A program made the translations under genes and the position numbers. From IMG/VR virus record IMGVR_UViG_3300027969_000040: a DNA stretch of 64,000 nucleotides. One strand, 5' to 3'. Origin of the DNA: a virus (lineage: Duplodnaviria > Caudoviricetes). Below are positions 9,068-57,424 of the stretch, in pieces. How positions within the stretch are numbered: the first letter of the stretch is position 1; each line of letters opens with the position of its first letter. The notes under the pieces are model-generated. The model made no database searches. It saw nothing but the letters and a program-made list of their open reading frames with translations, and was not told where the DNA came from.

Positions 9068-9074
9068 TATTTAT
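9068..9074 (-). promoter_or_regulatory. T4-type late promoter ATAAATA
   Basis: Overlaps the stop codon of the 3732-aa gene, upstream of the ATG at 9050. Confidence 0.6.
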
Positions 9075-12000
9075 TAAGAAACCATCTTGCTTGGTGGAGT
9101 GAATGCACCGGTGTATCTGGCCACGCTCTTGGTTACACGTAAATCATCAATGTAACCGTTGAAATAGTTGGATATTGTTGCACCGCCGCTGTAGCCGGCT
9201 CCGATATTCACTATGCTTGCACTTATATATGCGGTAGTATCAGCCCATGGGGTTCCAGCTACTACACCATTTATATACAAAGTAGTGGTATTAACATAAC
9301 GAACTAGAGCAATATGATACCATGTATTAATAGCAATTGCGCTGGCTGCGCTGGTAATCCTGTCTGCTGTGCTGACATAATATCTAACAGTTCCATCACT
9401 GCTTAAATAGATAAGATGATACGCCCCGTTAGTTGATGCCGGTCTGGTGTCAAATAACTGTGCAGAAGTACCCGGTAGTGCTGCGGCACGCATCCAAAAT
9501 TCGATAGTAAAATCGGATACAGCACCAAAGTTAAACTTGACATCCGAGTAGGGTACTGTTAGGTAGTTACTAGATCCGTTAAAATAAACAGATCCTGTGC
9601 CATACCGGTAAACTGAGTTGACTACTTGTGCTGCGCCTGCTACACTTCTGATCGCGCTCCTCGACGAGGGATCGTTAATAGCAGAAGTTACAGTATTGCC
9701 AATTAATAATGCAGTATTTGCAACCGTAGTCGGAGGGGCCGCAGGTGGTGTAAATGCACTGGTGTACAGTGCAGTACCGTTGACTAATCGAATACCGCCT
9801 ATATAGCCATTGAAAAATAGTGTATTGCTACCAGTTTGACGACCAATACTGCCGCCTGTGGTGGTACCCGCAACACCAAAACTGTCAGCTATTGTACCTT
9901 GGGCATAGACTGCTCCGTTAACATATATAGTTATTTGGTTTGTGCCGGTCCCGGTACGAACTACAGCCACATGATAAAATTGATTTGGTAATAGTGCAAC
10001 AGTTCCGGTTACATATACTGTGGTACTAACACCGGTAGCATAACCAAATTGTAAAAGTCCAGTTGCACTAAATCCCAGCTGCCATTGCCCAGTTTGGAAT
10101 GCTGCTGCAATACCAATAAAGTTGTCAATTAATTTAGGCTGTGCAGTTAGTAGACCAAAAGAATAAAACCAACATTCTAATGTAAAATTGCTTATGCCCA
10201 ATACCAACGAGCTAGCCGGTAAATTTAAATAATCTGCGGTACCATTTAGTACCACAGTTCCGCCGTATGCAGAATTTGACCAGCTGCCAGCTGGTGGATA
10301 TGGTGAAAAGTTTTCAACAGTGGGTGTACCTGCCCTGGTTAATGTTCTAGCATAAACTGATCGATCCACTGCATAGCTATCTTTTAAAGTTAATAAACTA
10401 GTACCAGCTGCAAACGGACTTGCCGTCGACACTGTAGCCAAATTATTGACCATTGCATATGCATTAACACTAGAATCTACAACAGTAGCATTACCAGCAG
10501 CGAGCAAATTGGTAATACCAGTACCAAACGGATTAACAAGTGCCGTGGTAGTTGGTGGCCCTACATTGGTTAAAGTAAATGCATAAGGTCCAGAATCAGT
10601 GAGAGTGCTAGATCTTGCTGCAAGTAAATTAGTATAACCAAAAGGAACAGATGATCCGCCACTGTTAAAAGCAGGATTGCCAGTGGCAGTTATTGAAATG
10701 GCATTGGTACTATTATCAATTGCAGTAGCTGATTGTGCAGTTAAAAATATAGTATTAGCGATAGCAGTTAATGATGTTGTTGGCGGTAGGAAATTAACTG
10801 TAGTATATAGTGCAACACCACTTAGAATTCTAAGATTACTTATGTAGCCGATAAACGGAAACGGATTAGAATCTGCGTATCTACTACCCAATCGAACAGT
10901 GTCGGACAAATTAGAAAATGTAGAAGTCATTGAGCTGATAAACGTACCATTGACAAAAGCAAATAATCTATTAGATTGCATGGTTAATACAACATGTGTC
11001 CAAGTACTAGTCGGTAATGTCCACGAAATAAAATTTACACCTGCGCTATTTGCATTAGCAATACCGGCACCGTTACGTGCAAGTATAAATCCTGATGTTG
11101 TTTGAGTTGTACTAGTTACAATACCTGCTAGACTATCAGCTGCAGGGTCAACCCATACCCAACACTCTACTGTAAAGTCGCCGGTGCCTATAACAAAACT
11201 ATTACTAGTAGCAGTCAAGTAACTGCTACCATTGAAATATACGCTATAAGGAACAACGGGTTGTGTTATTGTTGTTAGTCCTACAGTAGGAACAGTAAAA
11301 GCAATAGATTGATATATTGCTGCACCTTTTGTTATTCGAAGATTTGTCAAATAACCTGCCCAAGACGATACAGTTGTTGCGCTCCATGAGCCAATTGCCG
11401 TCAATCCAGCTGAATAGTTGTCAAGATTGGCAGCACTTGCCATTGCTTGGCCATTGATATATATTGTTATTATTCCACTAGCTCTTACCGCAGCTACATG
11501 TGCCCATGTATTAATTGTTATAGTATTAGTAGGAGTAGTAATTAATAATATATTATTAACCGAGTAAAATACAACTGCGCCAGTTGCATTGTTAACACCA
11601 ATCCGATATGTACCTGCACCCGACCCAGTTCCAACAAAATAAGTTGGCCCAGTGGTTGTTGTATAATAGATCCATGCTTCAATGGTGAAATCCCCGGTAC
11701 CCATTTGTAATGCTACATTGTCTGGTACTGTTGAATATGCTGGTAAAGAATTAAGTGCTGGCGCTATGTCGGCAGATACAACAAGGTTGGTATTAGTCAC
11801 AGTTAGACTATAGCCCCCGGTATCGGTGATATATCCTGCTGTACCGTTTAATAGCAATGACGTATAACTCAAATTTGGTATTGCCGCAGAAGGATTGCCA
11901 TTCTGATTAGCAATTTGTGTACTAGTCAATTGGCCTGTGGAAACAACAAAATTGCTGGTATATACAGCTAGACCTTTAACAATACGGAAATTAGAAATAT

Positions 12001-15000
12001 AACCTGCAAAGGGAAGAAGATTGCCGTCGGAATTAGCACCAATCGTTAATAAATTATTACCAGTATTACTCATAACGGCAGCCAGAGATACAGGAGTTTG
12101 TGATACCCCATTTACATATGCAGTTATTGTATTTCCGTTACGCACTAATGCAAAATGATACCAAGTAGATATCACAAAGGTGCCAATTATGGTTTGTGCT
12201 GCCGCTGCGCCGGATCCACCGTTGCCCAAGGTCCATGTTCCAGTTCCGGCATTGATATTAAAAATATATGAAGGATTCACGGTGCCAGTTGCGCCACCTT
12301 TTCCAAATATTACACGATTAGATGCAACACTGGTAAGATAAAACCAAGTCTCTATGGTCCAATTTAGAGCACCGGTTGCTAAATCTAAAGCATCGCCTGT
12401 AGTTCCTGTAATAGATATATACTGGGTTGTACCATTGAAACTTAAACTACTTGCTAGCAGTGCAAAATTAGTACTATAATTAGTTGTAACATTGGAAATT
12501 GCTGTAGTTGATGGAGTAAAGTTTGCTGTGTACAGGGCTTGTCCATTTGTTACACGTAGGTTAGAAATATGTCCAGTGAATTTGCCACCTGTGCCTGACC
12601 ACCCACCAATGACTGTAGTATTAGCTGTGGTTCCCCATGTTCCAGTCTGGGCAATAGTACCAACATTATTTCCTGCCAGGTATACTGTTACCGTATTTGA
12701 TCGATTTACAAAAGCTATGTGTGTCCAAGTATTTAAACTTGGTGTTGTTGCTGTTACTGTTTGATAGCTAAGGCCATTTCTTGCTGCTACAATATATCCA
12801 GCATTAGTAATACCCCAAGTTTGATAACTAGTAACTCCCACATTACCACTAATAATATTAACTGAGGTAGCGTATGTAATACCAGTTGCAACAGCGGTCA
12901 TGTAGATCCATGCTTCGACTGTGTAGTCACTAGTTAATGTTGTTACTACTGCCAATGGCGCTGCCAAATAAGAAGTAGTACCATTGAATAATACACTGTA
13001 TGTGCCGGTGCCTGCCACAGTGGTTAGTGGCGCAATTGGTTGTACTGTAGACTGGACACCTTTATCAATTTGTAAATTAGATATGTATCCCGAAAAATAT
13101 GCAGTACCAGCCGGATTTCTACCAATATTTAATGTGTTAGTCGGCGCCGCAGTATTGTACACAAACGATGGTAAGCTACTTGAGCCAGCTGCTAGACCGT
13201 TAATATAAAAACCAACTGTTTTTGTATTAGCTGTAAAAGTAACCGCTATGTAGTTCCACTGGTTTAATACTACTACCGGATTTGAATTAAATGCCGGGTT
13301 GGTAACGGCGCTACCAGTGGCATTAAAGAACACCACGGACATGCTGCCAGTTACACCACCATAGGTGGTATTGTTAAGTTCAATACTGATCCCAGTTTGA
13401 CCGGCCACATTGGTTGTGGCTAGCGGAACCATTAGTGATGAGCTTCTTGGATATATCCAAAATCTCACAGTCCAATCTTCAATACCATTGTGTAAGAATG
13501 CCCACTCGATGGCAGTGCTCGCTGTGTAGTAGTCAGTGGATCCGTTGAATTGATAACTCCAACCAGTTACAAACGGATTCACTGCGCCTTGTGTAGCAGT
13601 ACCTGCTCTAACAATTAAATAGTTATTAAAGCTGTTGTCCGAGAAGAAATTGTTATTATTTGATACGTTGTACTGACTGGTCAATACACTGGTACCGGCA
13701 TAGGCAGTAAATGGATTGTTCACGCTAACGCCGGTTACACCTTGGTTGGTAATAGCAATAGCGCCGCCGCTGGTGTCAACAATAGTTCTAGACTGAGCTA
13801 TTAGCAAGCTGGTGGTACTGGTGAATGGATTAACTGCAATACTGGTTACTGTACCGGTATTGGTGATGGACACTGGCAGTGTACTATTGTCTACAATGGT
13901 TGCCGCTTGCGCAGTTAATACTATTACATAAGCTGGAATTTGTGTGGAGTCGGTAGCAATTGAAATGCCACCAACATTAGTTATTGCTGCTGAATTTGCA
14001 CTATTATCTATAATAGTATTATTTTGCAAAGTTAACAAGCTGGCCTGTGTTCCAGTCACGGCAGCAATATTACTGCTGGCATTTTGTATAGTAGATAATT
14101 GAATGGTAGGTGGTGTAAAGTTGCCAGTGTAGACTGCGACATCTTTTACAATTCTGAAATTACTAATATAGCCATTCCAGAATTGGTCGCCCGATGCACC
14201 ATCTGATTTACCGATATACCCTGGAGCAGTAGTATGTGAAATAGTTCCAGCATAGGTATAGACTGTACCGCCCACACCATTTTGATATATCCTAAATGAA
14301 CTGCCACTTCTAACCAATGCTACATGGTACCAAGTGTTTGTTGTTAGTGCTGGTAAACCAAAATCAAGATTAGAATCAATTGCCCATGATGTACCAGATG
14401 AACTAGCAATTTGCATGACTAATTTATTTGTGGTATTAAGTACACGAAATATTACACCAATGTATTGTAGTAATTCTCTCTTACCAAATATACCGTTTTG
14501 ACCGTTTAATACAGTAGTATATACCCATGCTTCAATAGTAAAATCACCAGTACTAAGATTAATTGCAGTTGAATGTGGTACAGTCAAATACTGTGTACTA
14601 CCATTAAAACTTGCATAGTAATATTTTGGTGGTAAGGTTGGTGTTAGTAAAGATGCTGTTGTGCCGCCAACGTTGGTGATTGTGTTTACATATGCACTTG
14701 CATCTGTTATAGCTGCGCCTTGTAATGTTAACATGCTGGTTTGCAATCCGGTGATAGCTGCTATGTTACTACTAGAACTTTGTGTAGTTGCCAGTGGCAA
14801 GGTTGGTACTGTAAAGTTGCCAGTGTATACTGCTACTCCTTTAACTACACGTAAATTAGTAATATAACCATTAAAAATGTAGCCAGGTGATAATGGAACA
14901 TTACCATCTGTACCAATTATTGGTCTATTAGTGCCGTTTAACCAATTTGTAGTACTGGTGCCGCTAGAGGATTGTACACCATTGATATATGTAGTCTGAG

Positions 15001-18000
15001 TTGTACCACTCCTACAAATCGCAATGTGATACCAAGTGTTAAGAGAAATTGTACCGTTAAAAATTTCACCAGCAGGACCTACACCAAAACATACATGACT
15101 AGCACCGCTACCGGTTCCAGCCGGTCGAGAATCATATAACCATCCATTAGTTGCAGAACGAGCATTTTGATATATCCACATTTCAATTGTGAAATCACCA
15201 GTGCCAAAAGCAAATTGCGAATTGGTTCCTGGTACATATAGATATTGTGTCAAACCATTGAACACTCCACTGTACGCGGCGGCATAGTTGATAGCAGCAG
15301 ATGGTAATCCATTTTGATTGGCTGTTTGTACGTTAGTCAACGAGGCTGTAGCTGGCGTAAACGTAGTAGTGTAAACTGCTATGCTTTTAACAAGCCTGAA
15401 ATTGCTTATATAGCCAGTGAATGGTTGTGTACCTGCGCTGGATGCTCCAATGGATATGGTATTTGTTGCAGCATAAAGACTGGGTGTACCACTTGAATAT
15501 GTCACAACCGAAGTACCATTTAGGTATAGGGTAAATATATCGCCATTTCTGACAAACGCCAGGTGATTCCATTGATTTAACGCTATAACCGAGCTTGATA
15601 CACTATCTGTTAGTACTGTCGACCCGTCAACGGATAACAAAAATCTAGCAAACCCACTGACATTATTACTGGTCATGACAACCCAAGACAGAGTTGTACC
15701 GCCAGTAGATCCAGACCATTGTCCAAAAAATATATTTTGTGCTGTCCAAGCTATAGATCTATAAACCCAAGCTTCGGCAGTAAAATTATCTGTACCAAAT
15801 TGGAATGTTGTACTAGTAGGAATTGTCAAATAGTTACTACCACTAAACGAATAGCTGTAGGATGCTGAGCCGGCACCAACAATGGCCCGTGATGGTACAC
15901 CATTTTGATTAGCTGTCTGTGATGATGTCAATGCTGTAGTAGCGGGCGTAAAGTTGGCTGTGTAAATGGCCACACCTTTTACCAATCTCATGTTGCTAAT
16001 ATAGCCAGGGAAATAGTAAGTAGTACCTTGGCCATCAAGTCCAAAGCCCACCGACAATAGCGCAGTGGACGCTGTGATACTAGCCGGGGCTGCAACCGAA
16101 CTAACCAACGACCCATTGAGATAAACATTAGAGTTTGCAGTTGATTTGACCCATGCTACATGGTACCAGGTATTGGCTGCAATTACACTAGACGGCGATG
16201 ATTGAAATAGTGTAGTGTTATAATCTACACGTATGTTGCCACTCATTGTACGCATCTGGAATGCTTTACCACCGGCAGTGGTCCACAAACTCACAATGCT
16301 TGCATTGGCTCTAGTTATATCTGTAACATATATCCAAGTTTCAACTGTAAACTCAGCTGCGCCAAATACATACCCGGTATTATTTGGCGCAGTCAAATAT
16401 TGGTTAACACCATTCAAATACACACTGTAATTTTTTACCACTGGCTGATCAATTGCAGTAATATTAGTTCCAGATGCTTGTGTTGATGTCAGTGATGACG
16501 TAGACGGCGTAAAATTACCAGTATAGACCGCAATGCCTAATACTTTACGGAAGTTGCTAATATAGCCGGTCCAATATAAACCCGGTGTGGTTCCTGCACC
16601 ACTACCAATTGACAATGGTGCCACATTAGTATGTACATTTCCTGCAACTGTTGCAGTACCGCTTATATTACCATTGACCCATACCGACCACGTATTACTG
16701 GATTTAGTAACTGCTACGTGATTCCATAGTCCGGCCTTAATAGACGCATTTGATGTAATCGCCACCGTCCAAGTTGCACCATCTGTACTGGCATTGAATA
16801 CTGGTGCCAGTGTACTTGCAAATGCCAATTGGTAACCAGAAAATAATGCTGTTGTGCCACGCTTGGCAAATACAGCTCCAGTAGGAGTAGTCAGCGTAGT
16901 CCATATCCAAGCTTCTAGTGTAGTATTCAATACTCCAATATTAAACTCAGGTGCATCTGCAATGGTAAAGTAATCTGTAGTACCGTTAAAATAAGTTGAA
17001 CCCAGTGTAGCATTATCGCCAGACAATGTTAACGCACTAGCAAACGGCGCACGAGCTTGAGTGGGTCTGATGGCAGCATTGGTATTTGTTAAAGTTAAAT
17101 TATTTCCAGAATTGTCAACAAACGTGCTATTCTGCAATGCTAATAATTTAGTTTGACCGGCTGTGATTGCAGCTGACGGAAATCCGTTTACGTTTAAATC
17201 TTGTACGGCTGTCAACGGCACAGTTGATGGTGTAAAGTTGCCAGTGACAATTACCAGCGTGCCTTTAACTACACGAATGTTGGTAATGTATCCAACGAAT
17301 GGTCTGCTGGGTCCATTTATCCAAGCACCTATATAGGTTTGGAAGCTGGCAGACCAGTTGACTGATACAGTTGACACTGCTACCGAACCGCTGAGTCCGG
17401 CGGTCCTATACAACGACAATGTGGTACCTGTGCGTATTAATCGATAATAGTACCAAATATTTGGTGATAGTACACCTGCAGATTCTGTGATAGTATAAGC
17501 AGTAACTCCTGAATATATGGTTGCAGTCATTGCAGCATTATTCATTTCAAGTACGATGCCTTCGTCTGCATTGCTAGCGATTGTGCTATTTGAAATGGAG
17601 AATACTCGCTGTAGTCCAACTACGGTAGTTGGATATATCCAAAGATCTACTGCAAAGTCGCCAGCACCGACTTGGAAGGCAGCGTTATTTGCCACCTGTA
17701 GATACTGTATGTTTAGACTTTGATCTGTGGTCAGCGTATTAGGAAAACTTCTGCCTGGTCCCCATATTATACGTACTGCGCCTTGGCCTCCATAACCACC
17801 TATAGGTGCTTGGCCGCTGTTATCACTGCCACCACCACCGCCACCACCAAAATCGCCGCCAGGATTATATCCCAGTGTAGTTATGCCGCCGGGTGCTCCT
17901 ACTGCCCAACCACGGGCGCCGCCACCATTGCCAGTACCGAATGGTGTTGTTAATCTATAGATAACTCCGGTATTGGTTATGGTGTTAGGTGTTGTGCTCA

Positions 18001-37831: not shown

Positions 37832-37846
37832 TTTTAACTCCAATTC

Positions 37847-45700: not shown

Positions 45701-48700
45701 ATAGAAATAGTTGATTATAATAATCCGGTATATAATAAGTATCTGTCAGAGGAATAGTAAATGTGGTGGTTATATAAGTTTTAATCAATTGATTATCTAA
45801 TATGATTACTGTTTCTTTTACTTGATACCCGTAGTACGGTCCAACTGTACGATTATTCGGAAAAAATACAGAATCTGATATCATTGGTACTGCAAATTTA
45901 TAATTTCCAATACTAATTAAAGGAGTAACTAGCCGTTGAGATGTATTAAATGGCACAGTTAAAGAAATTATATCATTTTCTTTTATTTTTACATTGTCGG
46001 TATATTCCGACCCATTTATAGCTAAAAATCCAAACTCGGCCGATATGTATATATCTTTATTATTTGGTATAGTCTGAGTCATTAAAATTTCAATTTTAGT
46101 TTCATTTTTTCGAGGAACTGTCACCGGTCTAATTATTTGAAATTTATTATAAGGGCAAAATCCCCGATCTATATAATCAAAACTGCCAATGCCTGCTACG
46201 CTCCATGCTCCTACACCAACATCACTGTAAAATACAACACTCTGATTAGCAGCTACGGTAGTATAAGTTAAACTTGCTGTACTACCCATTCCGACATTTG
46301 CTGTACTTAAATGATTAGAATTATCGTAAAAATATTCAATGAATTGCATTAATTTACCAACAGAAATTCCAACCTCATAGGTAAGCTCTTTAACTGGTAA
46401 TATTGTTTTGAATAGCAAATCGGTATCCATGGATATGCTCGCCGGTTGACTTAACTCAACACTTTTTCGTTGTATAGATAAAATTGAACCAGACGTCAAA
46501 TACGTTGTACTATCAACTTCAAAACCGAGTCTATGAAATTTAACTGGCGTTGCAGCCGGCCCAGTAGGCCCAGTGCTATAGTTCTCAACGTTTGCGTAAT
46601 ATATTGAATATCCGTCGGTAGCTGTTAAACCCGACATTTGGATTTTTGTACTGTTTATTGTATATGCAGTACCAACCGATATACTATTAGTCATAACAGT
46701 AGTAATTATGTATGCACCATCAAACCTTTTACTTATAATAGTTCCATTTGTGACATTAGTAATAACCAAATTAATATATATTTTATTATAATCTGCTTGA
46801 CTTACATAAAATTCAGACACTATGCTAGTAATGGGCCCACCACCTACGTGTCCTATACAAGTAATCGAAATAGTTAGTCTATCTATAGTTTGAATCCCAT
46901 CTAAGTATGCTGATAGACCACTTGGTTTTTTTGTAAAAACTACATAATATGAGTCGTCAACATCAGAATCGACATGTCCATCGAACACAAGTAAGTTAGT
47001 AAACGAATCAATTAAAATCAATTTGACACTAGCCGACGAAGTTATTATATTACTTGGCGCCGATAATACAAACGTATTGTGATAGCCAACAGTATTATTG
47101 TAAGCATAATTTATTAACGGATTTCCTACTAATTGGAGATTTAAAGAATTATTAAAGTGAATTAGAGCAACCGCATCATAATTAATTTTTATAAATTTAG
47201 AAATAGTGTTAACACTAGCGGCAACGAAATTAAGATCTATTAGATCAGTAATTGATACTACAGTAGTAGAAAGCGTAATTCCTGTGCCACTAACATAATC
47301 TCCCACATTTACATCAGTAACCGATGCAAGAGGAACTTTAGTTGAGTTGATCGTTGTGGCTCTACAGGTAACAAGATTTCCCAATGGGTACGGTTGAGCT
47401 TCTGTTCCCACCCAACGAATTCTAATGGTCTGAAACTCTTCTATAATTCCCGACTTATAATACAAACCCGGTGTATTACCACTATTTAATGTTGCCGGAT
47501 GTACATTTAAAGGATCTCTATTATCGATCGGGGCACCAAGATACAGATCACGTGCAGTCTCAATATACAATGCATCTTTATGTAGACTACCAAATTCCAC
47601 ATTGCCAGTTAGTACAGTGCTGCCAAACGTTATATATCCGTCGGTTGCTACATTTATATTTGAATAATTAGTACCGTACATAGTTAAATTGAACGGCAAC
47701 GATATACCAATATTTGCACCAGTATCTATATTACCAAAATTAACAGTGCTCGAATATCGAATTGGAGTTAGTGATAATGAACTATACCTGTTTAGTGCTA
47801 CTGTATTAGGTACAAAAAAATCTAAATTACTAGTTGACGATTTTACAGTAAAATTACAATCAATTGCTGTTTCGCCTATAACAATTGTACGTCTATAGTC
47901 TCCATTGGCATATGCTCTGAAACTAACACCTAAATAATCACCGGTATTAAATTTAGTATTTGTTGCTGCTTTTGCACCATTGACCCAATAGCTTAAATCT
48001 CTACTGGTATTAGCTGCAATGGATTCAATTCCTAACATTTTCACGCGAACTGGTCTGGTGCCAATGTGACTCAATGGCCCAATTTTATCATCAAATTTAA
48101 ATGGAATTATTTTTTTAATGCTGGCACCAGTGGGCGCCACTAAATTTAGTGTAGAAAATTCTTGCAAATAATGTACTGCAAGATAACTATTGCCTACTAC
48201 TGATATTAGTGTAATTTTATTATCAAAACGATATTCTTTTATTTGATTAGTTGAATCAATTGATAATGCAGTATTGTTGTCGTGTCCTGTTACCCATAGT
48301 GTGTGTTTAAATTGCCTTGCATATGCCGGTGCCATATTTGGGGTAGGAATGTAATACAAACTGCTTGCGTCAGAATTTGTAACTATTATTCGACAATTGT
48401 TCGGATCGGGTATTCCTACAAAATCACTGTCGGGCATAGTTGATGGTGTGCCAACTGAATTAACATCTTGCCCTAGTGTCTGCATTTGTGAAAACTCGCC
48501 AGAATTACTTACATAGTATATTATTCCCAACGTTGTAACAACAATTGCACCGGTACCAATGCAGGCTATTGAAGAAAATTTATCTAACGCACTATTAAAT
48601 GTTGAAATCAATTCAAATTGATTATTTAAATAATATATACTTCCTTGTCCAACTACCCATATATATGTATTATTTTGATTTATATCAAACGACGTTACTA

Positions 48701-49460
48701 TAGGATTTATTTTTGATCTATAATACGCTCGTCTTGCATCTGTATACGACTGTCCACTGGGAAGATCGGCTTCAAATGGCAAATTATTATTAAATGATCC
48801 AATTGGTGTTACAATTGGATCAAATGAATTAGTATTAAAAGATTGCGACCTAAGGGTAATCCTGTACATTTTTTTGTCTGCACATAGTACCACTGCCTCG
48901 GTTTCTAATTTATTAGTAGCAGGATTGATCTTTGATAGTTTTCGATATTCAATTGGACCAGCCGGTAAGTATACTTTAGAAATTAACTCTTCGGTGTCTG
49001 CGTAAAAACATACTGTATCATTTATATGATCTAATACAATGTGATATGCTAAAATATTAGGCGTTAGATTATAATTAAATCCCAATCGCCGTTGATTGTT
49101 TATTGCACTTTTATAGAAACTAATTAAAAATACCTGTGGTGCATAATTGAACCATTTTTTTCTAGCATCTGTAGTTTTAACAGACGGTCTATAATCATTT
49201 TTATTAACAATTGCAAATGTTTGCGTTAGACTATCAAGTTGATATTCGTAAATTTGATAACCTAAATACGAATTAGGCGTAGTTACAGTAACTTGTACAT
49301 GATCTAACGGAAGTAAATCAACCGGGCGCGTGGAAATTATACTATCATTAACTGATAATATAACCCCCACTGTTGAGATATTAAATGTTTGAGATTTACT
49401 TGAATAAAAATCTACAGTAATAACACTATTGGGGGTGCATGCCGAAACACTGTTGAACAT
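42741..49460 (-). CDS. Very large virion protein (~2239 aa) with propeller-like N-terminal region, nidogen(NIDO)-like domain and tandem-repeat C-terminal third
   Basis: ISLPFNLTMYGTNYSNINVATDGYITFG NIDO-like motif; 48-, 45- and 42-nt in-frame repeats. ATG at 49460, 4-5 nt after GGAGG(G), is preferred over the track start 49472. Confidence 0.8.
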   Translation of the reverse strand: MFNSVSACTPNSVITVDFYSSKSQTFNISTVGVILSVNDSIISTRPVDLLPLDHVQVTVTTPNSYLGYQIYEYQLDSLTQTFAIVNKNDYRPSVKTTDARKKWFNYAPQVFLISFYKSAINNQRRLGFNYNLTPNILAYHIVLDHINDTVCFYADTEELISKVYLPAGPIEYRKLSKINPATNKLETEAVVLCADKKMYRITLRSQSFNTNSFDPIVTPIGSFNNNLPFEADLPSGQSYTDARRAYYRSKINPIVTSFDINQNNTYIWVVGQGSIYYLNNQFELISTFNSALDKFSSIACIGTGAIVVTTLGIIYYVSNSGEFSQMQTLGQDVNSVGTPSTMPDSDFVGIPDPNNCRIIVTNSDASSLYYIPTPNMAPAYARQFKHTLWVTGHDNNTALSIDSTNQIKEYRFDNKITLISVVGNSYLAVHYLQEFSTLNLVAPTGASIKKIIPFKFDDKIGPLSHIGTRPVRVKMLGIESIAANTSRDLSYWVNGAKAATNTKFNTGDYLGVSFRAYANGDYRRTIVIGETAIDCNFTVKSSTSNLDFFVPNTVALNRYSSLSLTPIRYSSTVNFGNIDTGANIGISLPFNLTMYGTNYSNINVATDGYITFGSTVLTGNVEFGSLHKDALYIETARDLYLGAPIDNRDPLNVHPATLNSGNTPGLYYKSGIIEEFQTIRIRWVGTEAQPYPLGNLVTCRATTINSTKVPLASVTDVNVGDYVSGTGITLSTTVVSITDLIDLNFVAASVNTISKFIKINYDAVALIHFNNSLNLQLVGNPLINYAYNNTVGYHNTFVLSAPSNIITSSASVKLILIDSFTNLLVFDGHVDSDVDDSYYVVFTKKPSGLSAYLDGIQTIDRLTISITCIGHVGGGPITSIVSEFYVSQADYNKIYINLVITNVTNGTIISKRFDGAYIITTVMTNSISVGTAYTINSTKIQMSGLTATDGYSIYYANVENYSTGPTGPAATPVKFHRLGFEVDSTTYLTSGSILSIQRKSVELSQPASISMDTDLLFKTILPVKELTYEVGISVGKLMQFIEYFYDNSNHLSTANVGMGSTASLTYTTVAANQSVVFYSDVGVGAWSVAGIGSFDYIDRGFCPYNKFQIIRPVTVPRKNETKIEILMTQTIPNNKDIYISAEFGFLAINGSEYTDNVKIKENDIISLTVPFNTSQRLVTPLISIGNYKFAVPMISDSVFFPNNRTVGPYYGYQVKETVIILDNQLIKTYITTTFTIPLTDTYYIPDYYNQLFLLTRTPTITRQVLPAGTYYNLRAGDIITIENILTPSSIYDVYDILVSTASRAIRISVRTGSGPVFNYIDFGTLVEPYARGLTYTIDPLYSSVGYVGDLFSTSNITLTATTAISGGGLYIDTAYANIIINNVDKGRYATNVSTGDIISLRRTIVNYVESNVTLYQVKTDTTILSKVYIPIGNWGLQNKVIVNEGLAPTEKLVTGNIAPTLVSDSSPLFKMDTQFEAESSTNIKIKSTPQHLATLNYLNVPKIDNVKFQNTSIGMGQMTFSKLPRLSLSLSEVFPTKLYSISSRLTANVFPELSKTSSYIKLTQGNLVLPHSISYMSVGSYMPLLPYNISYLKLGGFEPLLPYNISYLKLGGFEPLLPYNISYLKLGSFEPLLPYNISYLKLGSFEPLLPYNISYNLSETFKPEIDNTATYYKNQRFKDTISTIATYYINDTFFTESDAAITYYTSTEFEAKADTISTYNISDQFDINRDGGGNDFSPDKFDINLLPGGQQFHSGSVSNLPTNVTLMNYNMPYNRENDFQLPNYNMPYNRENDFQLPNYNMPYNRENDFQLPDYRMPYNRENDFQLPDYRMPFKREIDINENHYRNDANTINPTTQFGAIFPPSKINATNLSIYLTPITIHRDIMTGDISPVMKNKSELYASIVANADPKEVELYTYIDPIRHNKTYLFDTLKSAADPKESVLKDAIYSLAEAKVAISHTDLPPYNENIPTELIPRMDVLMEIEDPFKLLTPLTSTHDSKNQTTTDLLPYQTTKNYGTIVDLTAYYDIENQPAEYLAPIYNSETIASDELASQLDIETNILTEIIPQLDIETNILTEIIPEIDIRINPLVDAKIINRLDVETILLPKITPEIDIERRSLIPLISEFQTQIMYTTKELDEVSAFSTYIKIYALGNLGDTATYVDPTTSPLGKPFSMEYNYVSAAYRTRYDASVEAGKYKGADVVKVGTDYWNYRIYFNTRHFCIPKKGRLFPTSWYISGG
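43221..43304 (-). repeat. 42-nt in-frame tandem repeat (LDIETNILTEIIPQ)
   Basis: Two near-identical copies starting at 43221 and 43263. Confidence 0.85.
43964..44159 (-). repeat. 45-nt in-frame tandem repeat (MPYNRENDFQLPNYN/DYR)
   Basis: Units at 43964, 44009, 44054 and 44099, partial at 44144. Confidence 0.95.
44501..44715 (-). repeat. 48-nt in-frame tandem repeat (LLPYNISYLKLG(G/S)FEP)
   Basis: Units at 44501, 44549, 44597 and 44645, partial at 44693. Confidence 0.95.
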
Positions 49461-49519
49461 CATGCCCTCCAATTGGGTGTAACATAGTCAATTATTTTTT
49501 CCTTTAATATAAAGGAGAT

Positions 49520-51301
49520 TTAAATATGACTGTCTTCGGCAGCATTACTAGCGGCTCGTTGCAGATCAACATCGTCTAGGTCGGCAAAATACCCCATTTT
49601 AGTTAATACCATTAATCGCATACCAGTACCAAATCTTTCAGTTCCGTACAATGCCTGATATACTCTTTTACCCAGCGATGGGGTAGTGGATGCACGTTTT
49701 ACGCCACGTTCATCGTACCCACCATGGCCTTCATTATATACATCAACTTCAATTACCGATCCTGGTCCGACCACTTCAGACGACACAGTACCTAACATAT
49801 CTAATTCATCTGCATAACGGAATCTAGGAGTACTTAAATTATTTAAAAATGTAACTACAAAGTCCCCATTTTCAGTCAATGACTGTTGCGGATATGGATT
49901 TAATAACGGCGGATTATCCTCAGTTTGTATAGTAGCTGATTTTTTAATGCTTGGTGCCGATACATCTACTTCTCGAAGAATAAACTTTGTAAAACTCTGT
50001 GGAGCACCCATTCCGGTTACCACAAATACAGGGCATCGGCTAGTTTCGTATGAAATAGCAGGATTGTAAGGGAATCGTTGATTACGCATTTTTCCTCCGC
50101 CCCTTACATGCCCGGTTATTCGATCAACTGATCGTTGACATAAGACCCAGCGGAATGGACTGTTACCAATATTGTTAGCAAGTAATGGATTTGGGTTATT
50201 GCCTATATCAAACGTACCTTCGGGTACTTCTTCTTGACTACCTTCCCATACTGCAAAAAACCAACCTCTATTAGTCATTGTTATACAATAGCTCATTGGG
50301 TACGCACCCTCAGACCCTATGTCGGGATCTCTGTTGAGCCAAATTTGAGACAATGCTTTTGCTGGATCTGGTGCCGCACTTGTCCAGTCTTGACCAAACG
50401 AACTTAAATTACCTGCTGGTTCTGTTTTTGTAGGAGCTGTCGAATAGGCTCGATTGTTTAATTGTGCAATATTTCCAGTATTTGGTAATTGTAATTCTGT
50501 AGCACAATGTATTGCCATTTTTGTGTCAGATATTGCATTAAAACAAACTCTCCAATTTGAACTATTACCGGCTGCCGATCTAAATGCACCAACTTGAACT
50601 TGATCAGCTAAAGGATCAACCAATGGAGTCGATTCTAAAATCCAAACTCCCCAACTTGCTCCAGCAGAACTATCAGTTGGAATTGGATTAGTTGACGCAG
50701 GATCTGGAGACCAAGGAACATTTCTTGTATTGTCGTCAGCATCTGCTGGTGTTGTTGGTACAAGTGGATTCAATATGTCTGGTCCAACATAGCCGCCTGC
50801 TCCACCCCATGGAGTATGTGGCGGAGGTACACTTTTTACATATGGCATTGTAAAACTGTATCCAGTTCCGGCGCCAACAGTGGTTACTGGGTTAACTATT
50901 CCTGGAGTATTTCCGCCAGATACAGTAACTGGTTCTGTGACTAATTTCAATACCACGCTTGCTCCATCAGGCACGGCTGGGTCAATGCTGGGCTCATAAA
51001 CTCCGGAAGTGGTATACGATCTATAAACATAATAATTACCTGGTGCTATAGTACCCGCCGTCCCAGCGCCAGTGCCAGCAGTAACAGTAATTTTAGTTCC
51101 ATGTGGAACCTTATAGGGTATGCCTACAATTGAAATATTTCCTGCCGCAGCAATTCCCCCAACTTGTAACGATACACTAGGATATACAATTCTAAAAAAC
51201 GGAACACGATTCATACCTTGTCCGGTCATTTCTTTCATTACATCAGTCACAAGGTCCAGAATGCTAGTGAACCCGTATTTTGTAGTATTAAAACATGCCA
51301 T
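49520..51301 (-). CDS. Virion structural protein (593 aa), paralogue of 51319..54108
   Basis: AGGAG RBS; shares YP-x-x-Y-x-x-T-x-TNRG-x-F-x-x-VWEG, QR-x-VDR-x-x-G and NL-x-TPRFRY-x-x-ELDM-x-G with its neighbour. Confidence 0.8.
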   Translation of the reverse strand: MACFNTTKYGFTSILDLVTDVMKEMTGQGMNRVPFFRIVYPSVSLQVGGIAAAGNISIVGIPYKVPHGTKITVTAGTGAGTAGTIAPGNYYVYRSYTTSGVYEPSIDPAVPDGASVVLKLVTEPVTVSGGNTPGIVNPVTTVGAGTGYSFTMPYVKSVPPPHTPWGGAGGYVGPDILNPLVPTTPADADDNTRNVPWSPDPASTNPIPTDSSAGASWGVWILESTPLVDPLADQVQVGAFRSAAGNSSNWRVCFNAISDTKMAIHCATELQLPNTGNIAQLNNRAYSTAPTKTEPAGNLSSFGQDWTSAAPDPAKALSQIWLNRDPDIGSEGAYPMSYCITMTNRGWFFAVWEGSQEEVPEGTFDIGNNPNPLLANNIGNSPFRWVLCQRSVDRITGHVRGGGKMRNQRFPYNPAISYETSRCPVFVVTGMGAPQSFTKFILREVDVSAPSIKKSATIQTEDNPPLLNPYPQQSLTENGDFVVTFLNNLSTPRFRYADELDMLGTVSSEVVGPGSVIEVDVYNEGHGGYDERGVKRASTTPSLGKRVYQALYGTERFGTGMRLMVLTKMGYFADLDDVDLQRAASNAAEDSHI

Positions 51302-51318: not shown

Positions 51319-54108
51319 TTAATGTGGAATATCTCTTATAACACAGATCCTCAGACCTGTATTATATGGTAAGTTTGAAGGCATAGCCCTATATGTCCTA
51401 GGTGATGGTTCGCCGTATACTCCAGCGCCGTTTGGAGCAGTTAACACCACATCATTACCCGACATACAAACATCAGCAGATGCTTGCCCAATCATGTCTA
51501 ACTCTTCTGAGTATCTGAATCTAGGAGTAGTCAAATTATGTAAGAATGATATAAGATATGTATTATACTCAGTCAATGATATTTGATTAGTTGTATTCAT
51601 TATTGCATAACTATCCTGCGTATGTGTATCAGCTGGTATTCTATATTTAGACTCAATTTCTCGAAGTATGGCTGTTTTTCCAACTGTACTAGCGGTGGCT
51701 GTAAGAGATTGTACAGCATTTGCAGCACCAATACCTGCCGATCCAGTGTAACCTATTCCAGACCTAGGATCTATAAAGTCTCTTACATTCCACGGATCGC
51801 CTTGCTGCGGATGTGTAATATCTTCTTCTCTAACTATAAATTTCCAATATCTATACCCAACACTATTAACACAAAACACAGGTGCTCGACCTTTGCAATA
51901 TGTTCTGCCATTTTCTCTGTCAACTGGGCGTTGTATTAAAAACCAATTAAAGAAGCTATCTTTATCAATTATGCTAATTGATGCAGCTTTTTGCATGTTG
52001 CTCCAATTCCCTTCCCAAACGCCAAAGAATAAACCGCGATTGGTTATAGTCATTGTATAATTCAACGGATATGCTTCAGGGCTCAGAGCGACTCTGACTT
52101 CTCTGTTAACAAATCCTTCGGTTGGTTTTGCAGGATCTGGCCCAATATTAGTGGTAATACCAGGTGCGCCGCCATGGGATGCATACCCCTGTTGCTTGTC
52201 GATATAAGTTGAAGCAAGACCTGGTTTTTCGCCCATCATTCCTGCTCTATCAACTATCGTTCCGTCGGCTTTGGTAACATTTGCAACCGTGCCTGCGTCT
52301 GTTAATTGCATTGGTGTTCCTGCATATACATTCATTGCCTGTGCCCCGGCAAGCGGCTTGAGTTTATTTCGTAATACCTCAAATGTAACTCTCCATGGTT
52401 GCATTTCAGGGAAAAGACAATTTACATATAAACCCGAATGCTGAGCATATTGTTTATTCAATCGAACATTGGCAAACCAAGTTTGGTTAGGTATATCGTA
52501 GAATTCCTCCATTACCTCAACAATTTTTAGATCTAAATCAGGCTCCAGATAAACTGATGTATCGCCACGTGGCATTCTAACTGACATGCCGGCATGCATC
52601 TTAGGTGTTTTTACCGTGTCTGCATATTTTTGATCTGTTACACCATTTAATTCTAGATACTGTGATATACTAGTATCGCCATCTCTATCTAATTTTATAT
52701 TTCCAAAAAGTCCTGTAGGATCATTTATTGGATCAACATCGCCAGTGGCTTCTAATGTTGCTAAAAATCCAGCTGGATTTCTGACATTATCGTTAATAGT
52801 TAAACCCGAACCTCTAAAAAGTAAAGTATCACCTACATTTATATTTACTAATTCTGAGTTTCCGGGTGCCGCTTCAAGTTCAATATAGGTATACAGTGTT
52901 ACTGCTTCTGAACTATAAGTTCTATCAACAGGCGCGCCCGTGCCGCCTATCACTTTATGCGTTAACTCGGGGCGAGTTCTTATACCTGTTACAACTTCAA
53001 AAGATTTAACACTTTTTACTTTTGTACCTGGTGGAATATAACTTTGAACATCTCTTTTGCCGACCTCGGTACTTAATATAATTTCTTGCCCTGGCATTAT
53101 CATTGTATAAGCAGTAGTGTGTAATACCGAAAACCATATACCGGCCGAAGTTGATTCGTAAGTAACCCCGAAGCCGGTTGCATCAGGGTCCATTTCAATA
53201 CCTCTGGGCCAGAGACGCTCACCATTTGTGCCGTATCCATACTGCGCCTGCCAGGGTTCGCGAGGACGAGGATTTGACCCCGAACCAAACGGTGATATTG
53301 TTGGCGCTACGTCCGCAGGGTTGCCGGTTGTCGCTGCACCAGCTGCCCAGCCAACCTTTGCAAATGAGGTATTCGGTATGGCGGCTGAACCAAACGGGGT
53401 ATCGTCGCCTTTATGTGCAGATGGTTTACCTGCAGCACCTGGTGCACCTCTATATGTACCTTGGCAAACGTAGGTAACTCCCGTTGCACCTTGAGCTGGG
53501 GATGTCCCCGGTGGCCCGAGGTATGTCAATGGTGTAGCCTGTCTTTGATCCATCCTATACCAGTCGTTGACTTCTCCGACTTTAACAGCCAATGAAGTAA
53601 CAGCACCAACTGGATTAACTGCCTTAACTTCAAGTTTTGGACCTTTTAAATCCAATGGTTGCGCAGTTCCTGTTCCAGTTCCTGTACGGTCATTATATTT
53701 TGCGTATGGAACAAACGCTGTAAAAATTGTACCAATTGTATTTGTACTTGCCCCAAAATCAATGAAATCAGTTGTACCAAGTGATAAAATTTTATAATTA
53801 TGTCCAACTAGCAAGTTTTGATCTACATCAATTTCGTCTGGAATTGCTAGTTCAAGGGTATCACCCACCTTGTATCCTAATCCTCCAGATTCAATTTCGC
53901 AATATCTTTCACTTGGTACGCCAGCATCGCCAACTTCGTTACCAACTTCGTCGATAATAGTTACATTGGCTTTTTGAAATCCGTTGCCTACTAAAATTCC
54001 ATATGCATCGACCATTAAATCGCTCATATTAGTAAATCCAATTTTTTCAACTGAATAAAAGTTTAGTTCGGGATAAACTGTTTCGTATACTGTTCTTGGT
54101 TGTATCAT
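51319..54108 (-). CDS. Virion structural protein (~929 aa), paralogue of 49520..51301
   Basis: ATG at 54108 behind AAGGAG and a late promoter (track start 54129 lies in the UTR); shared C-terminal core motifs. Confidence 0.8.
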   Translation of the reverse strand: MIQPRTVYETVYPELNFYSVEKIGFTNMSDLMVDAYGILVGNGFQKANVTIIDEVGNEVGDAGVPSERYCEIESGGLGYKVGDTLELAIPDEIDVDQNLLVGHNYKILSLGTTDFIDFGASTNTIGTIFTAFVPYAKYNDRTGTGTGTAQPLDLKGPKLEVKAVNPVGAVTSLAVKVGEVNDWYRMDQRQATPLTYLGPPGTSPAQGATGVTYVCQGTYRGAPGAAGKPSAHKGDDTPFGSAAIPNTSFAKVGWAAGAATTGNPADVAPTISPFGSGSNPRPREPWQAQYGYGTNGERLWPRGIEMDPDATGFGVTYESTSAGIWFSVLHTTAYTMIMPGQEIILSTEVGKRDVQSYIPPGTKVKSVKSFEVVTGIRTRPELTHKVIGGTGAPVDRTYSSEAVTLYTYIELEAAPGNSELVNINVGDTLLFRGSGLTINDNVRNPAGFLATLEATGDVDPINDPTGLFGNIKLDRDGDTSISQYLELNGVTDQKYADTVKTPKMHAGMSVRMPRGDTSVYLEPDLDLKIVEVMEEFYDIPNQTWFANVRLNKQYAQHSGLYVNCLFPEMQPWRVTFEVLRNKLKPLAGAQAMNVYAGTPMQLTDAGTVANVTKADGTIVDRAGMMGEKPGLASTYIDKQQGYASHGGAPGITTNIGPDPAKPTEGFVNREVRVALSPEAYPLNYTMTITNRGLFFGVWEGNWSNMQKAASISIIDKDSFFNWFLIQRPVDRENGRTYCKGRAPVFCVNSVGYRYWKFIVREEDITHPQQGDPWNVRDFIDPRSGIGYTGSAGIGAANAVQSLTATASTVGKTAILREIESKYRIPADTHTQDSYAIMNTTNQISLTEYNTYLISFLHNLTTPRFRYSEELDMIGQASADVCMSGNDVVLTAPNGAGVYGEPSPRTYRAMPSNLPYNTGLRICVIRDIPH

Positions 54109-54129
54109 TGTTTTTCGCTCCTTGCCCAA

Positions 54130-54170: not shown

Positions 54171-54194
54171 CAAAGTTAACACAGTTATTAATCA

Positions 54195-55031: not shown

Positions 55032-55459
55032 TATGCTGCGTATCCGTGTAAAATTATAATAGTTTGCCCCAAAGGTGGCACACTAGTAAAGGTTATCTGA
55101 CTGCCATCAACTGTAAATGCTACCCCAGGATTTTGAAAAACATTACCAACATAAACTAAAAGATAATTTTCATCACCTTTTCTATAATTACTTTTCATTG
55201 GCCCAAAAATTACTTGAGCGCCTGTTCCTAAAAATGTATCTTTTCCTACAATTGCGGATCCTACTCTAGTAACTAAAGTTCTCCAAGCACCAGTGACTTC
55301 ACTGGCTGTTTTTATAAAAATTTCAGGGGCAATTGTATTTTTATTATATCTAATCAATCCAGGGACAGGAGCATTTGGTCCCACTGAACTATAACCCATT
55401 GGCAATCGTATGCTGTAACTGCCACTTTTTAATTCAGTATTTTTAAGGTATCGTCCCAT
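55031..55459 (-). CDS. Virion structural protein (~142 aa) with baseplate-wedge-type beta-sandwich repeat
   Basis: DTFLGTG...LVYVGNVFQNP...FTVDGSQITFTSVPP motif, also present near the C-terminus of the 1719-aa fibre. ATG at 55459 preferred. Confidence 0.75.
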   Translation of the reverse strand: MGRYLKNTELKSGSYSIRLPMGYSSVGPNAPVPGLIRYNKNTIAPEIFIKTASEVTGAWRTLVTRVGSAIVGKDTFLGTGAQVIFGPMKSNYRKGDENYLLVYVGNVFQNPGVAFTVDGSQITFTSVPPLGQTIIILHGYAA

Positions 55460-55460
55460 T

Positions 55461-56783
55461 TTATATACCAATAGTAGAAACAGTTGCTACAACATCGGGT
55501 AAAGATATTCCGGTTACAATACCATCGGTATAATAGTTCCAGTCTTCACCATTGCTACTAGTAGCAACTCTTGCACCATATCCAACTGCCATAAATTCAG
55601 ACCTGGCATTGTTCCATATTAAGCAAGAGCCTGCAACAGAATTCCAAGGTAAATTATTTAATGTATGCGATACCGTCCATTGAGTACCATCGTATACAAA
55701 TATATCCGAGCTGCTACCAATAACATAGAATCCGTATCCAACTCTGAATGTCGCGCCACCAGATCCTAATATTGATAAACTTCCTGCTTGAGCCAAACCA
55801 GGATTATAATTCCACGTAACAGCATCGTAACTAGTAGCTGCTTTATTGTTATCCAACGATAATGCTAGATAACCAGTTGCCAACGATCCTGAAAAAACTA
55901 TTGTTGTTACTCTGGTAGATTGTCCCCATGCAACATTATTTTGTAAATCGTCAATAATAGTCCAGGTAGCACCGTCGGTTGTTTTTGCCATTATGCCGCC
56001 TTCGCCACCTATTATAAAAGTTGTGCCATCCCACATAACAGTTGTTACATCTGTTTGTTGCCAGGTTGTACCTGACAGGCTTGGCTGATAATCCCAACTC
56101 TGTCCGTCAATACTAGTGGCAATACGAGCACTGTTTCCCACTGCTATAGCAATTGAATTATTTGTTGCAATTGCGTTTATGTCGTTGGAACCCCAGTCTG
56201 GTAAACTAGAAATACCTGTAGCATTAGTCCAAGCTATGCCATCTGTACTAATACCCATCCAGCCCTGTTGGCCTACTACTATATATTTTTTTCCTATCAT
56301 TCTGACTACGCCAGTAGCATCTACTGAATCCGGCCAAGTGATGTTAATTAACCCTGGCTGATAAGTCCAACTTTCACCTGTAGGGCTAGTAGCAACTTTA
56401 CCACTTTTACCTACTATTAAATATTCGTTTCTGTCAGGTGCCCATATAGCTGCACTAATTTTATCAATTGCACCCCATAGAGTCTGAGCTAATCCAATAC
56501 TTGCAATCGATGATGGATCAACAATACTGGCACATATAGTATCTCCGTCGTCTAAAATTAATTTTTCAGATTCTACTACATAAGTATCATGCGACGTTAA
56601 TGGTACATTATAATAAATTAATGTTTGGATTCCAGGTTGATAATTTTTTGGTACAGCATACACATTAAATAAAATTGGTATGCTGCCGGTGTTGCAGAAA
56701 TACATAGTAGTAACTGCATTACTGCCGTTACTAACGTAGATATTAGCTATAGTTGGTGTTATAATTGTACTTGTTAATGCCAT
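55461..56783 (-). CDS. Adaptor-like domain with inserted seven-bladed beta-propeller (440 aa)
   Basis: Seven VG...ATS-x-DG-x-x-W (Asp-box/BNR-like) repeats counted. Confidence 0.8.
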   Translation of the reverse strand: MALTSTIITPTIANIYVSNGSNAVTTMYFCNTGSIPILFNVYAVPKNYQPGIQTLIYYNVPLTSHDTYVVESEKLILDDGDTICASIVDPSSIASIGLAQTLWGAIDKISAAIWAPDRNEYLIVGKSGKVATSPTGESWTYQPGLINITWPDSVDATGVVRMIGKKYIVVGQQGWMGISTDGIAWTNATGISSLPDWGSNDINAIATNNSIAIAVGNSARIATSIDGQSWDYQPSLSGTTWQQTDVTTVMWDGTTFIIGGEGGIMAKTTDGATWTIIDDLQNNVAWGQSTRVTTIVFSGSLATGYLALSLDNNKAATSYDAVTWNYNPGLAQAGSLSILGSGGATFRVGYGFYVIGSSSDIFVYDGTQWTVSHTLNNLPWNSVAGSCLIWNNARSEFMAVGYGARVATSSNGEDWNYYTDGIVTGISLPDVVATVSTIGI

Positions 56784-56791
56784 AAAATATC

Positions 56792-57424
56792 CTATAACAC
56801 TAATGAAAATATTAGTGCTTTTCTTTTTGTAATTAATTCTGCGTTTAAAACTGACGAATTTGATACATATAAACCTGCTGCACCTGCTTCTGGTGCTTTA
56901 CTATATATCACAGTAGCATCATTGACTGCTGGTAATACATTTGTAACTGTACTGCTGATTTGTATGCCAGCATTTGGTCCAGTTGGTGCATTTCCTGGCA
57001 CTAATACTATGTTCTCTCCCGGCGACGATCTAATTTCGTATCCAGCTAAATTTAAATGCCCACCTAATGTTGGAGTTGGGTCGTCTGCAACCATTGACAT
57101 AATGTCTCTGTATAAGAAACTATCATATGTCATTTGCCATTTATTTAATTGTTCAGTCCATTGTATTGCTGCCTTAGGACTATCACCACGACTGACTTCT
57201 ATACCAGCATTTAGTATTGGTATTCCTGTTGTTACATTAGCAGCTAAAGTAATAAAATTATCAGATATTAGTGTTTCAACCGACCCAATATTAGTTTGGT
57301 TGCCAACTACTACTAAATTGCCAAAAATACTCACTGAGCCGCGGCCGCCTAAAGCGTCAATGTAGATATTACCGCCTAAAGCGGTTAAATACCAATCGCC
57401 AGATGTACGATCAACCGTAGCCAT
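56792..57424 (-). CDS. Fibre-shaft-like virion protein (210 aa) with hydrophobic C-terminus
   Basis: GNLVVVGNQT...DNFITL...AGIEV-x-RG shaft motif; ends LITKRKALIFSLVL; TAG stop. Confidence 0.8.
   Translation of the reverse strand: MATVDRTSGDWYLTALGGNIYIDALGGRGSVSIFGNLVVVGNQTNIGSVETLISDNFITLAANVTTGIPILNAGIEVSRGDSPKAAIQWTEQLNKWQMTYDSFLYRDIMSMVADDPTPTLGGHLNLAGYEIRSSPGENIVLVPGNAPTGPNAGIQISSTVTNVLPAVNDATVIYSKAPEAGAAGLYVSNSSVLNAELITKRKALIFSLVL

Follow-up and report, generated by a model that had tools for sequence, protein, structure and literature searches.

We analysed a 64,000-nt stretch of the uncultured virus record IMGVR_UViG_3300027969_000040 (Duplodnaviria; Caudoviricetes), hereafter the window, all of whose large open reading frames are encoded on the minus strand. 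By Pfam and PHROG the head module is of the T4 type, with a gp20 portal, an S77 prohead protease and a gp23 capsid protein; in gene order it is followed by small neck or tail genes, a pair of sheath paralogues (936 and 593 aa), and then very large proteins of 2243, 1630, 1437, 1057, 1719, 555 and 3732 aa, whose domains include LamG, Gly_rich_2, collagen and GDSL. There is no close cultured phage: at the nucleotide level the sole match in the phage collection is the capsid gene (75% identity), and the sheath is 24–30% identical to those of Lu11, PaBG and Erwinia jumbo phages. The run metadata group the phage with uncultured freshwater jumbo phages; the window covers the virion genes of such a phage, a jumbo myovirus whose head is of the T4 type. 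A sequence-only reading of the window had proposed that at least seven genes, the sheath pair among them, carry a domain interrupted by inserted domains (Table 1). All seven cases were borne out, though not equally: the 440-, 555- and 1437-aa proteins have the strongest evidence, the case for the 2243-aa protein and the two sheaths is good, and that for the 1630-aa protein is moderate. A LamG within a glycine-rich domain of the 3732-aa protein holds, and LamG inside LamG in that protein is conjectural. Domain insertion in these virion proteins is real and recurrent.

Table 1. Insert-bearing genes of the window, their inserts and the variable sites of the 3732-aa gene
Feature	Position	Strand	Source
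440-aa protein; small domain of the 107-aa family with repeat (propeller-like) insert	55461..56783	-	
~333-aa insert of the 440-aa protein (residues 97–430), six [ST]-x-DG-x-x-W motifs	55494..56495	-	
936-aa tail sheath; variable, probably outer domains at residues ~50–575 (nt 52405–53982)	51319..54129	-	PHROG 12249
593-aa sheath paralogue; middle region shorter	49520..51301	-	
2243-aa protein; split NIDO-like domain, C-terminal tandem repeats	42741..49472	-	
Two-level insert in the NIDO-like outer domain (residues ~695–1028); beta-barrel split by ~250 aa with a second barrel	46389..47390	-	AF2, VIA and Atlas ranges
1630-aa protein; SGNH/GDSL esterase, ILEI-like domain, LamG and two PA14/GLEYA-like units, one in three pieces	37847..42739	-	
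Insert 1 of the 1630-aa protein (residues 461–1105, including LamG), between piece 1 (448–460) and piece 2 (1106–1185)	39425..41359	-	hhalign
Intact PA14/GLEYA-like copy (residues 1190–1312), between piece 2 and piece 3 (1328–1341)	38804..39172	-	
1437-aa protein; ~105-aa beta-sandwich repeats, one split	33530..37843	-	
~590-aa insert in the split repeat of the 1437-aa protein (residues 154–745), glycine-rich domain and LamG	35609..37384	-	
555-aa fibre protein; Pam3 gp24-type TNF-like/glycine-rich domain with inserted LamG	20285..21952	-	
LamG and segment inserted in the 555-aa protein (residues 243–475), GLGGG motifs at the flanks	20528..21226	-	
3732-aa giant fibre; N-terminal motif, LamG 1, glycine-rich domain with LamG 2 inside, 13 more LamG cores with 38-aa segments	9074..20272	-	
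LamG unit C2 (residues ~548–781), between parts of the glycine-rich domain; core replaced in L018	17930..18631	-	
LamG core C8 cassette (residues ~1893–2041); three alleles in four genomes	14149..14595	-	
LamG unit C11 (core and segment, ~239 aa); present in the window and L018, absent in L001 and L027	11716..12500	-	
Extra-unit site inside the GIAVY|TGNFTP motif of C4	16521..16527	-	

BLASTP self-comparison returned no internal repeats in the 1630-, 2243-, 440-, 936- and 593-aa proteins, and profile methods were needed. Isolated pieces (the putative NIDO halves, the PA14 pieces and the propeller insert) had no Pfam match, and sequence searches of the PDB, with a LamG unit (phmmer) or with profiles of the glycine-rich and 107-aa families, gave no useful match. 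Among the seven, the 440-aa protein is the cleanest case of a split domain. Its first 100 residues find eleven proteins of 102–107 aa at 50–56% identity; ten homologues in this range align to residues 1–96, their last ten residues fall on residues 431–440 (VVATVSTIGI), and everything between forms a clean gap in the alignment. The insert, which precedes this last strand, holds its six repeats in clear form.

The 555-aa fibre protein could be compared with a known structure. Its match to Gly_rich_2 (PF21722) scores 62.3 bits against a cutoff of 24.3 and falls into two parts, with profile positions 8–187 mapping ahead of the LamG and 132–225 behind it; in the alignment with five Gly_rich_2 proteins that have no LamG (324–387 aa), residues ~243–475, comprising the LamG and a segment of ~38 aa, are a single gap. 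The same family is recognised in the 1437-aa protein (26.7 bits) and in the 3732-aa protein (21.7 bits for the whole protein, 31.4 for residues 300–560 alone), both of which our own glycine-domain hidden Markov models (HMMs) barely detect. Searching the PDB by sequence gave no match for the glycine-rich adhesin domain. We modelled the 555-aa protein with AlphaFold2 (AF2) from 50 aligned sequences; the overall predicted local distance difference test score (pLDDT) was 68, with 65–96 in the glycine-rich parts and 60–90 in the LamG. The model matches the fibre of cyanophage Pam3, 7ypx_A (Z 12.1, root-mean-square deviation [rmsd] 3.0, 174 residues aligned, 27% identity) and, as the match extends over 46..530, both halves fall onto what in Pam3 is one uninterrupted domain. 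The middle of the model has the jelly-roll fold and matches LamG, pentraxin, CBM40 and neurotoxin Hcn folds with Z of 12–14.5.

In Pam3 gp24, the strands of a TNF-like domain extend into six loops, each with two glycine-rich motifs that pack as a lattice, and the hypervariable distal tips are proposed receptor binders; the domain is related to S16 gp38 (PMC9608196). The scaffold of the glycine-rich fibre proteins in the window is an adhesin domain of this Pam3-gp24/S16-gp38 type. In the 555-aa protein the LamG is bordered by ...GGGGGAAGATVTNGLGGGQSG and GLGGGGRGG..., in the place of a short variable stretch found in relatives that lack the insert. Because it lies between two glycine-rich motifs, where published structures put the variable, receptor-contacting tips, the lectin would occupy a loop tip and be displayed at the tip of the fibre, and by analogy the glycine-rich domain and its LamG may have a role in receptor binding. 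Adhesins of this type are trimeric, receptor-binding fibre tips whose assembly relies on a dedicated chaperone; we found no recognisable chaperone gene.

The glycine-rich scaffold can itself be a guest. In the 1437-aa protein, an HMM built from two intact ~105-aa repeats (residues 803–906 and 1205–1311) matches residues 112–154 (profile positions 4–47, 3e-10) and then a stretch ending at residue 798 (profile to position 107, 4e-9). The intervening insert contains the start of a Gly_rich_2 domain (residues 164–241) and a LamG (485–634); the sequence score for a closing of the glycine-rich domain behind the LamG was not significant (z 1.7).

The PHROG 12249 "tail sheath" profile matches both the 936-aa protein (E 2.5e-47) and the 593-aa protein (E 1.7e-35); it spans the C-terminal part only and is thus blind to a split. 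In tblastn, residues 577–932 of the larger protein match the sheaths annotated in Lu11, PaBG and Erwinia jumbo phages. When the two paralogues were compared with hhalign (probability 99.8%), residues 3–30 of the smaller aligned to residues 24–50 of the larger, as did the C-terminal ~340 aa, and the middle of the 936-aa sheath has ~340 residues more. Relative to its orthologue in IMGVR_UViG_3300027749_000060, the middle is 30–60% identical and the C-terminal core 85–100%. The N- and C-termini of the sheath pair are thus conserved together around variable domains.

In the 2243-aa protein, residues 585–700 resemble NIDO-bearing clusters in language-model features (score 0.93, 185 of 256 features shared), the nearest cluster having NIDO in 31% of its members; the region has no Pfam match and a fold search gave no named NIDO structure. 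Alignment of 28 homologues of residues 570–1080 revealed a conserved N part and a conserved C part around a middle that is variable in length and content. In an AF2 model of this region (29 sequences, pLDDT 73), a beta-barrel domain of ~70 residues matches across the span 128..457 (9n71_B with Z 8.6 and rmsd 2.1, and also the P22 I-domain). Within this span is a second barrel, at 298..371, and larger sandwich matches cover 1..511. In addition, 142 residues of a contiguous 169-aa Atlas protein align over residues 1–499 of the model (TM 0.71 on the Atlas-protein side). The barrel matches and the contiguous protein that spans the model support the predicted two-level insert. Separately, the C-terminal third of the protein (42741–45200) is encoded in part by exact 48-nt and 45-nt tandem repeats, at 44448–44804 and 43907–44176, respectively; compared with the relative's orthologue this third is 7–45% identical and has a 48-aa indel, and the last 120 aa are 80–100% identical.

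For the 1630-aa protein we used hhalign with two-sequence profiles (window and orthologue). Residues 448–460 align to columns 13–25 of the intact PA14/GLEYA-like copy (E 2.5e-6) and residues 1106–1185 to columns 30–106 (E 3.8e-5, 33% identity); the match of residues 1328–1341 to columns 110–123 is weak (E 0.036). Pfam matches of residues 1190–1345 are also weak (GLEYA, E 0.012 and 16.3 bits against a threshold of 26.2; PA14, E 0.053). As the three pieces are collinear with the intact copy, the data provide moderate support for a PA14-like unit that was split twice, by ~645 aa including the LamG and by the intact copy itself. The N-terminus of the same protein (42060–42650) holds a GDSL/SGNH esterase domain (Pfam Lipase_GDSL_2, 2.9e-11), which may act as a virion-borne deacetylase.

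Two general features attributed to these insertions fared differently. Preservation of the terminal motifs applies to both termini of the sheaths, the 440-aa and the 2243-aa proteins and does not extend to the 3732-aa protein, whose C-terminus is an array of 13 LamG units. As a rule the junctions are not rich in Gly and Pro: of 360 junction residues ~5% are proline, and an excess of glycine occurs only where the host domain is glycine-rich.

In the 3732-aa giant fibre the Laminin_G_3 match totals 767.6 bits over 15 stretches, beside Gly_rich_2 (Pfam), and our own LamG HMM likewise finds 15 cores; the 555-, 1437- and 1630-aa proteins also have Laminin_G_3 matches. LamG 2 (residues 549–746 and a segment) has the Gly_rich_2 match (324–529) on one side and, on the other, a glycine-rich stretch with a modest resemblance to the C part of the 555-aa protein (z 2.9, a score reached by 4 of 500 shuffles). 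With C for core and S for segment, the order is C1 S, [Gly: C2 S], C3 S, C4 C5 C6 C7 S C8 S S S S, C9 C10 C11 S C12 C13 S S S S, C14 C15. The 555-aa and 3732-aa proteins begin alike, with M-[SA]-K-[RK]-[YF]-P-G-G-[IL]-I (z 9.1 relative to shuffled sequences), which is probably an attachment motif common to both; the start of the L027 orthologue differs (…KRHPGGWIVS).

To describe variation in nature we drew on a metagenome scan, which found two close relatives and many distant ones, and on viral contig searches with the 555-aa or the 936-aa protein, which found one close relative each. The relatives for the 3732-aa gene are L001/L016 (3492 aa), L018 (3713 aa) and L027 (~3480 aa), giving four assembled genomes with the window; that for the other insert genes is IMGVR_UViG_3300027749_000060 (L024/L025). 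Compared with the three assembled relatives, the 3732-aa protein is mostly 95–100% identical, and the LamG units C2, C8 and C11 stand out with 24–44% identity between flanks of 95–100%. The C2 core is 24–30% identical in L018, the three alleles of the C8 core are mutually 28–44% identical, and the C11 core is diverged in L018; a relative that lacks C11 is otherwise ~95% identical over the protein. The combinations of C2, C8 and C11 differ among the four genomes, indicating that alleles reassort, and the segments behind swapped cores stay conserved. At the DNA level, identity stops at FNGSSS or YYYASFNG and restarts at GVAVYTGNFTPP. The breakpoints recur at two conserved LamG motifs, FNG..YL and GxAVYTGNFTPP, and the expectation of preferred junctions was thereby supported.

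Contigs from four other studies (runs X2, X5 and X10 among them; assembled sequence only) served as independent samples; short-sided joints in their glycine-rich or repeat regions are probably artefacts of repeats and were left out of account. C8 is replaced by 464–471 unrelated bases in runs X5 and X2; in run X10 the C11 core is diverged with its length unchanged. Runs X2 and X10 both have ~635–641 extra bases at the site in C4, a unit of ~213 aa that is presumably a LamG, as its length and a stretch of 41 nt matching a LamG motif suggest. The boundaries 14149/14595 and 16521–16527 thus recur in contigs of other studies. The L018 allele of C2 (L018 11684–21671, residues 555–698) is closest, at 55%, to the LamG inserted in the 556-aa protein of L018, which suggests that the two glycine-rich domains may have guests of one subtype.

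The polymorphism of inserts among orthologues that had been anticipated is found in these LamG units and not in the other six genes, which keep their inserts in the one relative. Their lengths in IMGVR_UViG_3300027749_000060 and the window are 440/440, 920/936, 573/593, 2233/2243, 1636/1630 and 1441/1437 aa, no indel in the relative removes an insert, and in a comparison with this one relative (tail genes 56–90% identical) we saw no presence or absence of inserts in the 1437-, 1630-, 2243-, 936-, 593- and 440-aa genes. The two genomes form a sharp head/tail mosaic, seen in a comparison over 49520–64000 of the window: the relative's capsid, scaffold-region, 364-aa, 336-aa and protease proteins are 99–100% identical to those of the window, and the tail proteins are 60% (sheath), 70% (593-aa), 56% (2243-aa), 81% (1630-aa) and 77% (1437-aa) identical. 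A 442-aa gene at 28475–29803 is again 99.8% identical.

The collagen-like 1719-aa fibre gene (22321–27480) encodes 524 aa in L001 and 2165 aa in L018; its sharing with L001 at the DNA level is limited to the last ~400 aa, and it contains a 36-nt tandem array at 24022–24524. At 2–3810 the window has an adjacent pair of paralogous genes (564+ and 611 aa) that are 39% identical and have no family match.

We give a probability of roughly 0.7 to the explanation that these proteins were shaped by loop insertion of domains together with ordinary recombination of LamG units. On this view, autonomous domains (LamG lectins, beta-barrels, PA14-like units and a propeller-like repeat) entered surface loops of scaffold domains in frame and so enlarged the tail and fibre proteins; in each scaffold the N-terminal and C-terminal parts belong together. 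Most inserts would be old and fixed; the LamG units of the 3732-aa protein are exchanged, gained and lost in natural populations. The probable route is general recombination, homologous or by short homology, between co-circulating phages, its ends lying at the two most conserved LamG motifs; occasional short-homology events would add or remove a LamG unit, and no dedicated element would take part.

The use of the same two motifs as breakpoints in independent samples, and the presence of several alleles at three positions, could also be produced by a dedicated diversification system, in which recombination is targeted to the LamG boundary motifs and cassettes move at high frequency like those of antigenic variation. 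This we consider improbable. The junction motif is conserved as protein and not as DNA; synonymous sites differ between LamG units, so that the motif is not a DNA signal, and the repeats at the junction motifs are only 60–80% identical, with no letter-perfect DNA signal found at the junctions. The window has no silent donor cassettes, the closest paralogues being 35–55% identical, and no reverse transcriptase, invertase or recombinase domain was found among its proteins. As for crossover repeats, positions 8500–22500 contain only five short imperfect inverted repeats, and near-identical long direct repeats are absent from the window beyond those of collagen-type and tandem kind. Also against such a system, the six other insert genes have inserts of unchanged length in the relative. 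With no DNA signal, donors, crossover sites, reverse transcriptase or recombinase, general recombination is the simplest reading. The divergent patches might instead have evolved in place, by fast point mutation under diversifying selection and possibly with a mutator like that of diversity-generating retroelements (DGRs); the variable units are those expected to be exposed, and their segments and flanks are conserved. It is very hard to reconcile this with an identity of 24–44% and several indels beside flanks that are 95–100% identical even in DNA, with alleles that reassort between genomes, and with a window that has neither a template/variable repeat pair nor a reverse transcriptase, and we regard it as highly improbable. 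More ambitious than the explanation we favour, and doubtful at present, is the view of the 3732-aa fibre as a combinatorial lectin display, with C2 on the tip of the glycine-rich domain, C8 and C11 as population-wide interchangeable cassettes between two fixed motifs and a variable number of units: this would be recombination-based receptor diversification without retroelement or invertase, on a domain-in-domain scaffold that may include LamG within LamG.

How far nesting extends within the giant fibre is a separate matter. Two groups of five cores and five segments each (C C C C S C S S S S and C C C S C C S S S S) fit a nesting of LamG in LamG, and matches to LamG/pentraxin folds reach model residue 444, taking in the first strand of the segment; we lean slightly towards such nesting. 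The nesting could in part be an artefact of parsing, with the LamG cores of the 3732-aa protein in plain tandem, the 38-aa segments as separate linker or stalk modules, and growth by tandem gain and loss. The extra unit in X2 and X10 comes without a compensating length change in the gene and the brackets are not simply balanced, although 213 aa could equal a short core plus a segment. The flanks of C11 are locally diverged, such that an insertion after strand 1 of C12 looks the same as one between C10 and C12, and terminal tandem LamG is the commoner layout across the family. This tandem reading is plausible, and we lean against it.

Several observations qualify the picture of loop insertion and LamG recombination. 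Both AF2 models are of moderate confidence (pLDDT 68 for the 555-aa protein and 73 for the 2243-aa region), and the 38-aa segment behind the LamG of the 555-aa protein falls below 50, a point that also favours the tandem reading. In 95 mapped Gly_rich_2 proteins, some 80 of them LamG-bearing, LamG is mostly in tandem at the N- or C-terminus; it is internal in ~18 homologues, at about three profile positions (~65, ~104 and ~155–190). Insertion thus recurs at preferred places but is not the main way in which the family obtained LamG, which was terminal fusion. No donors of the alternative LamG alleles were found, their best matches being 35–55% identical, and the recombination route is therefore read from the pattern alone. 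Finally, the border of a divergent patch always seems to sit at a conserved motif, and the recurrent breakpoints may accordingly be old allele edges and not crossover sites.

The notion of an undescribed diversification system was overstated, since both nesting in the sheath and motif-based exchange in adhesins have precedents. In the T4 sheath gp18, domain I is inserted in domain II, II in III, and III between the termini that form domain IV (PMC3004832). The 936- and 593-aa sheaths similarly have conserved termini and a variable middle; unlike gp18, they match PHROG 12249 (Lu11/PaBG-type sheaths) and not the gp18 sequence, a nested topology of their middle region is predicted from sequence, and there are two paralogues with different middle regions. 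Adhesins of the gp38 type exchange sequence within or near conserved motifs (PMC3157838). The glycine-rich proteins of the window share with Pam3 gp24 and S16/T-even gp38 the Gly_rich_2 domain, the 7ypx_A match and variable elements between paired glycine-rich motifs; they differ in having a whole LamG lectin of ~230 aa in place of a short hypervariable segment and in the setting of the host domain, which in the 1437-aa protein is nested in a further domain and in the 3732-aa protein is trailed by 13 LamG units. The "evolved" Dit and Tal proteins of lactococcal and streptococcal siphophages contain in-frame carbohydrate-binding modules whose presence varies among related phages (PMC6669499, PMC7533335). 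They too are structural virion proteins with in-frame modules inside, but their hosts are baseplate proteins of Gram-positive siphophages, with another module family and one level of nesting, whereas here the hosts are a sheath, fibres and a 107-aa protein. With DGRs and the Gin, Cin, Min and shufflon systems the fibre shares the outcome, variation in receptor-binding fibre parts; unlike in those systems, the window yielded neither a reverse transcriptase and template repeat nor an invertase and inverted crossover sites, and unlike DGR products the LamG alleles differ by indels and by >55% of residues.

No new molecular mechanism is called for, and the principle that new modules enter loops because the termini are needed for assembly is already established. 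In the open-access literature we came across neither a LamG placed within a gp38/Pam3-type domain nor multi-level LamG arrays with exchangeable cores. A scaffold of the gp38/Pam3 type, previously known with short variable loops only, can carry a complete lectin domain, which is of use for interpreting the fibres of uncultured phages and for engineering receptor-binding proteins. The giant fibre provides a natural, sequence-defined case of whole-domain fibre diversification in an abundant group of freshwater jumbo phages, with breakpoints and alleles that can be traced in metagenomes.

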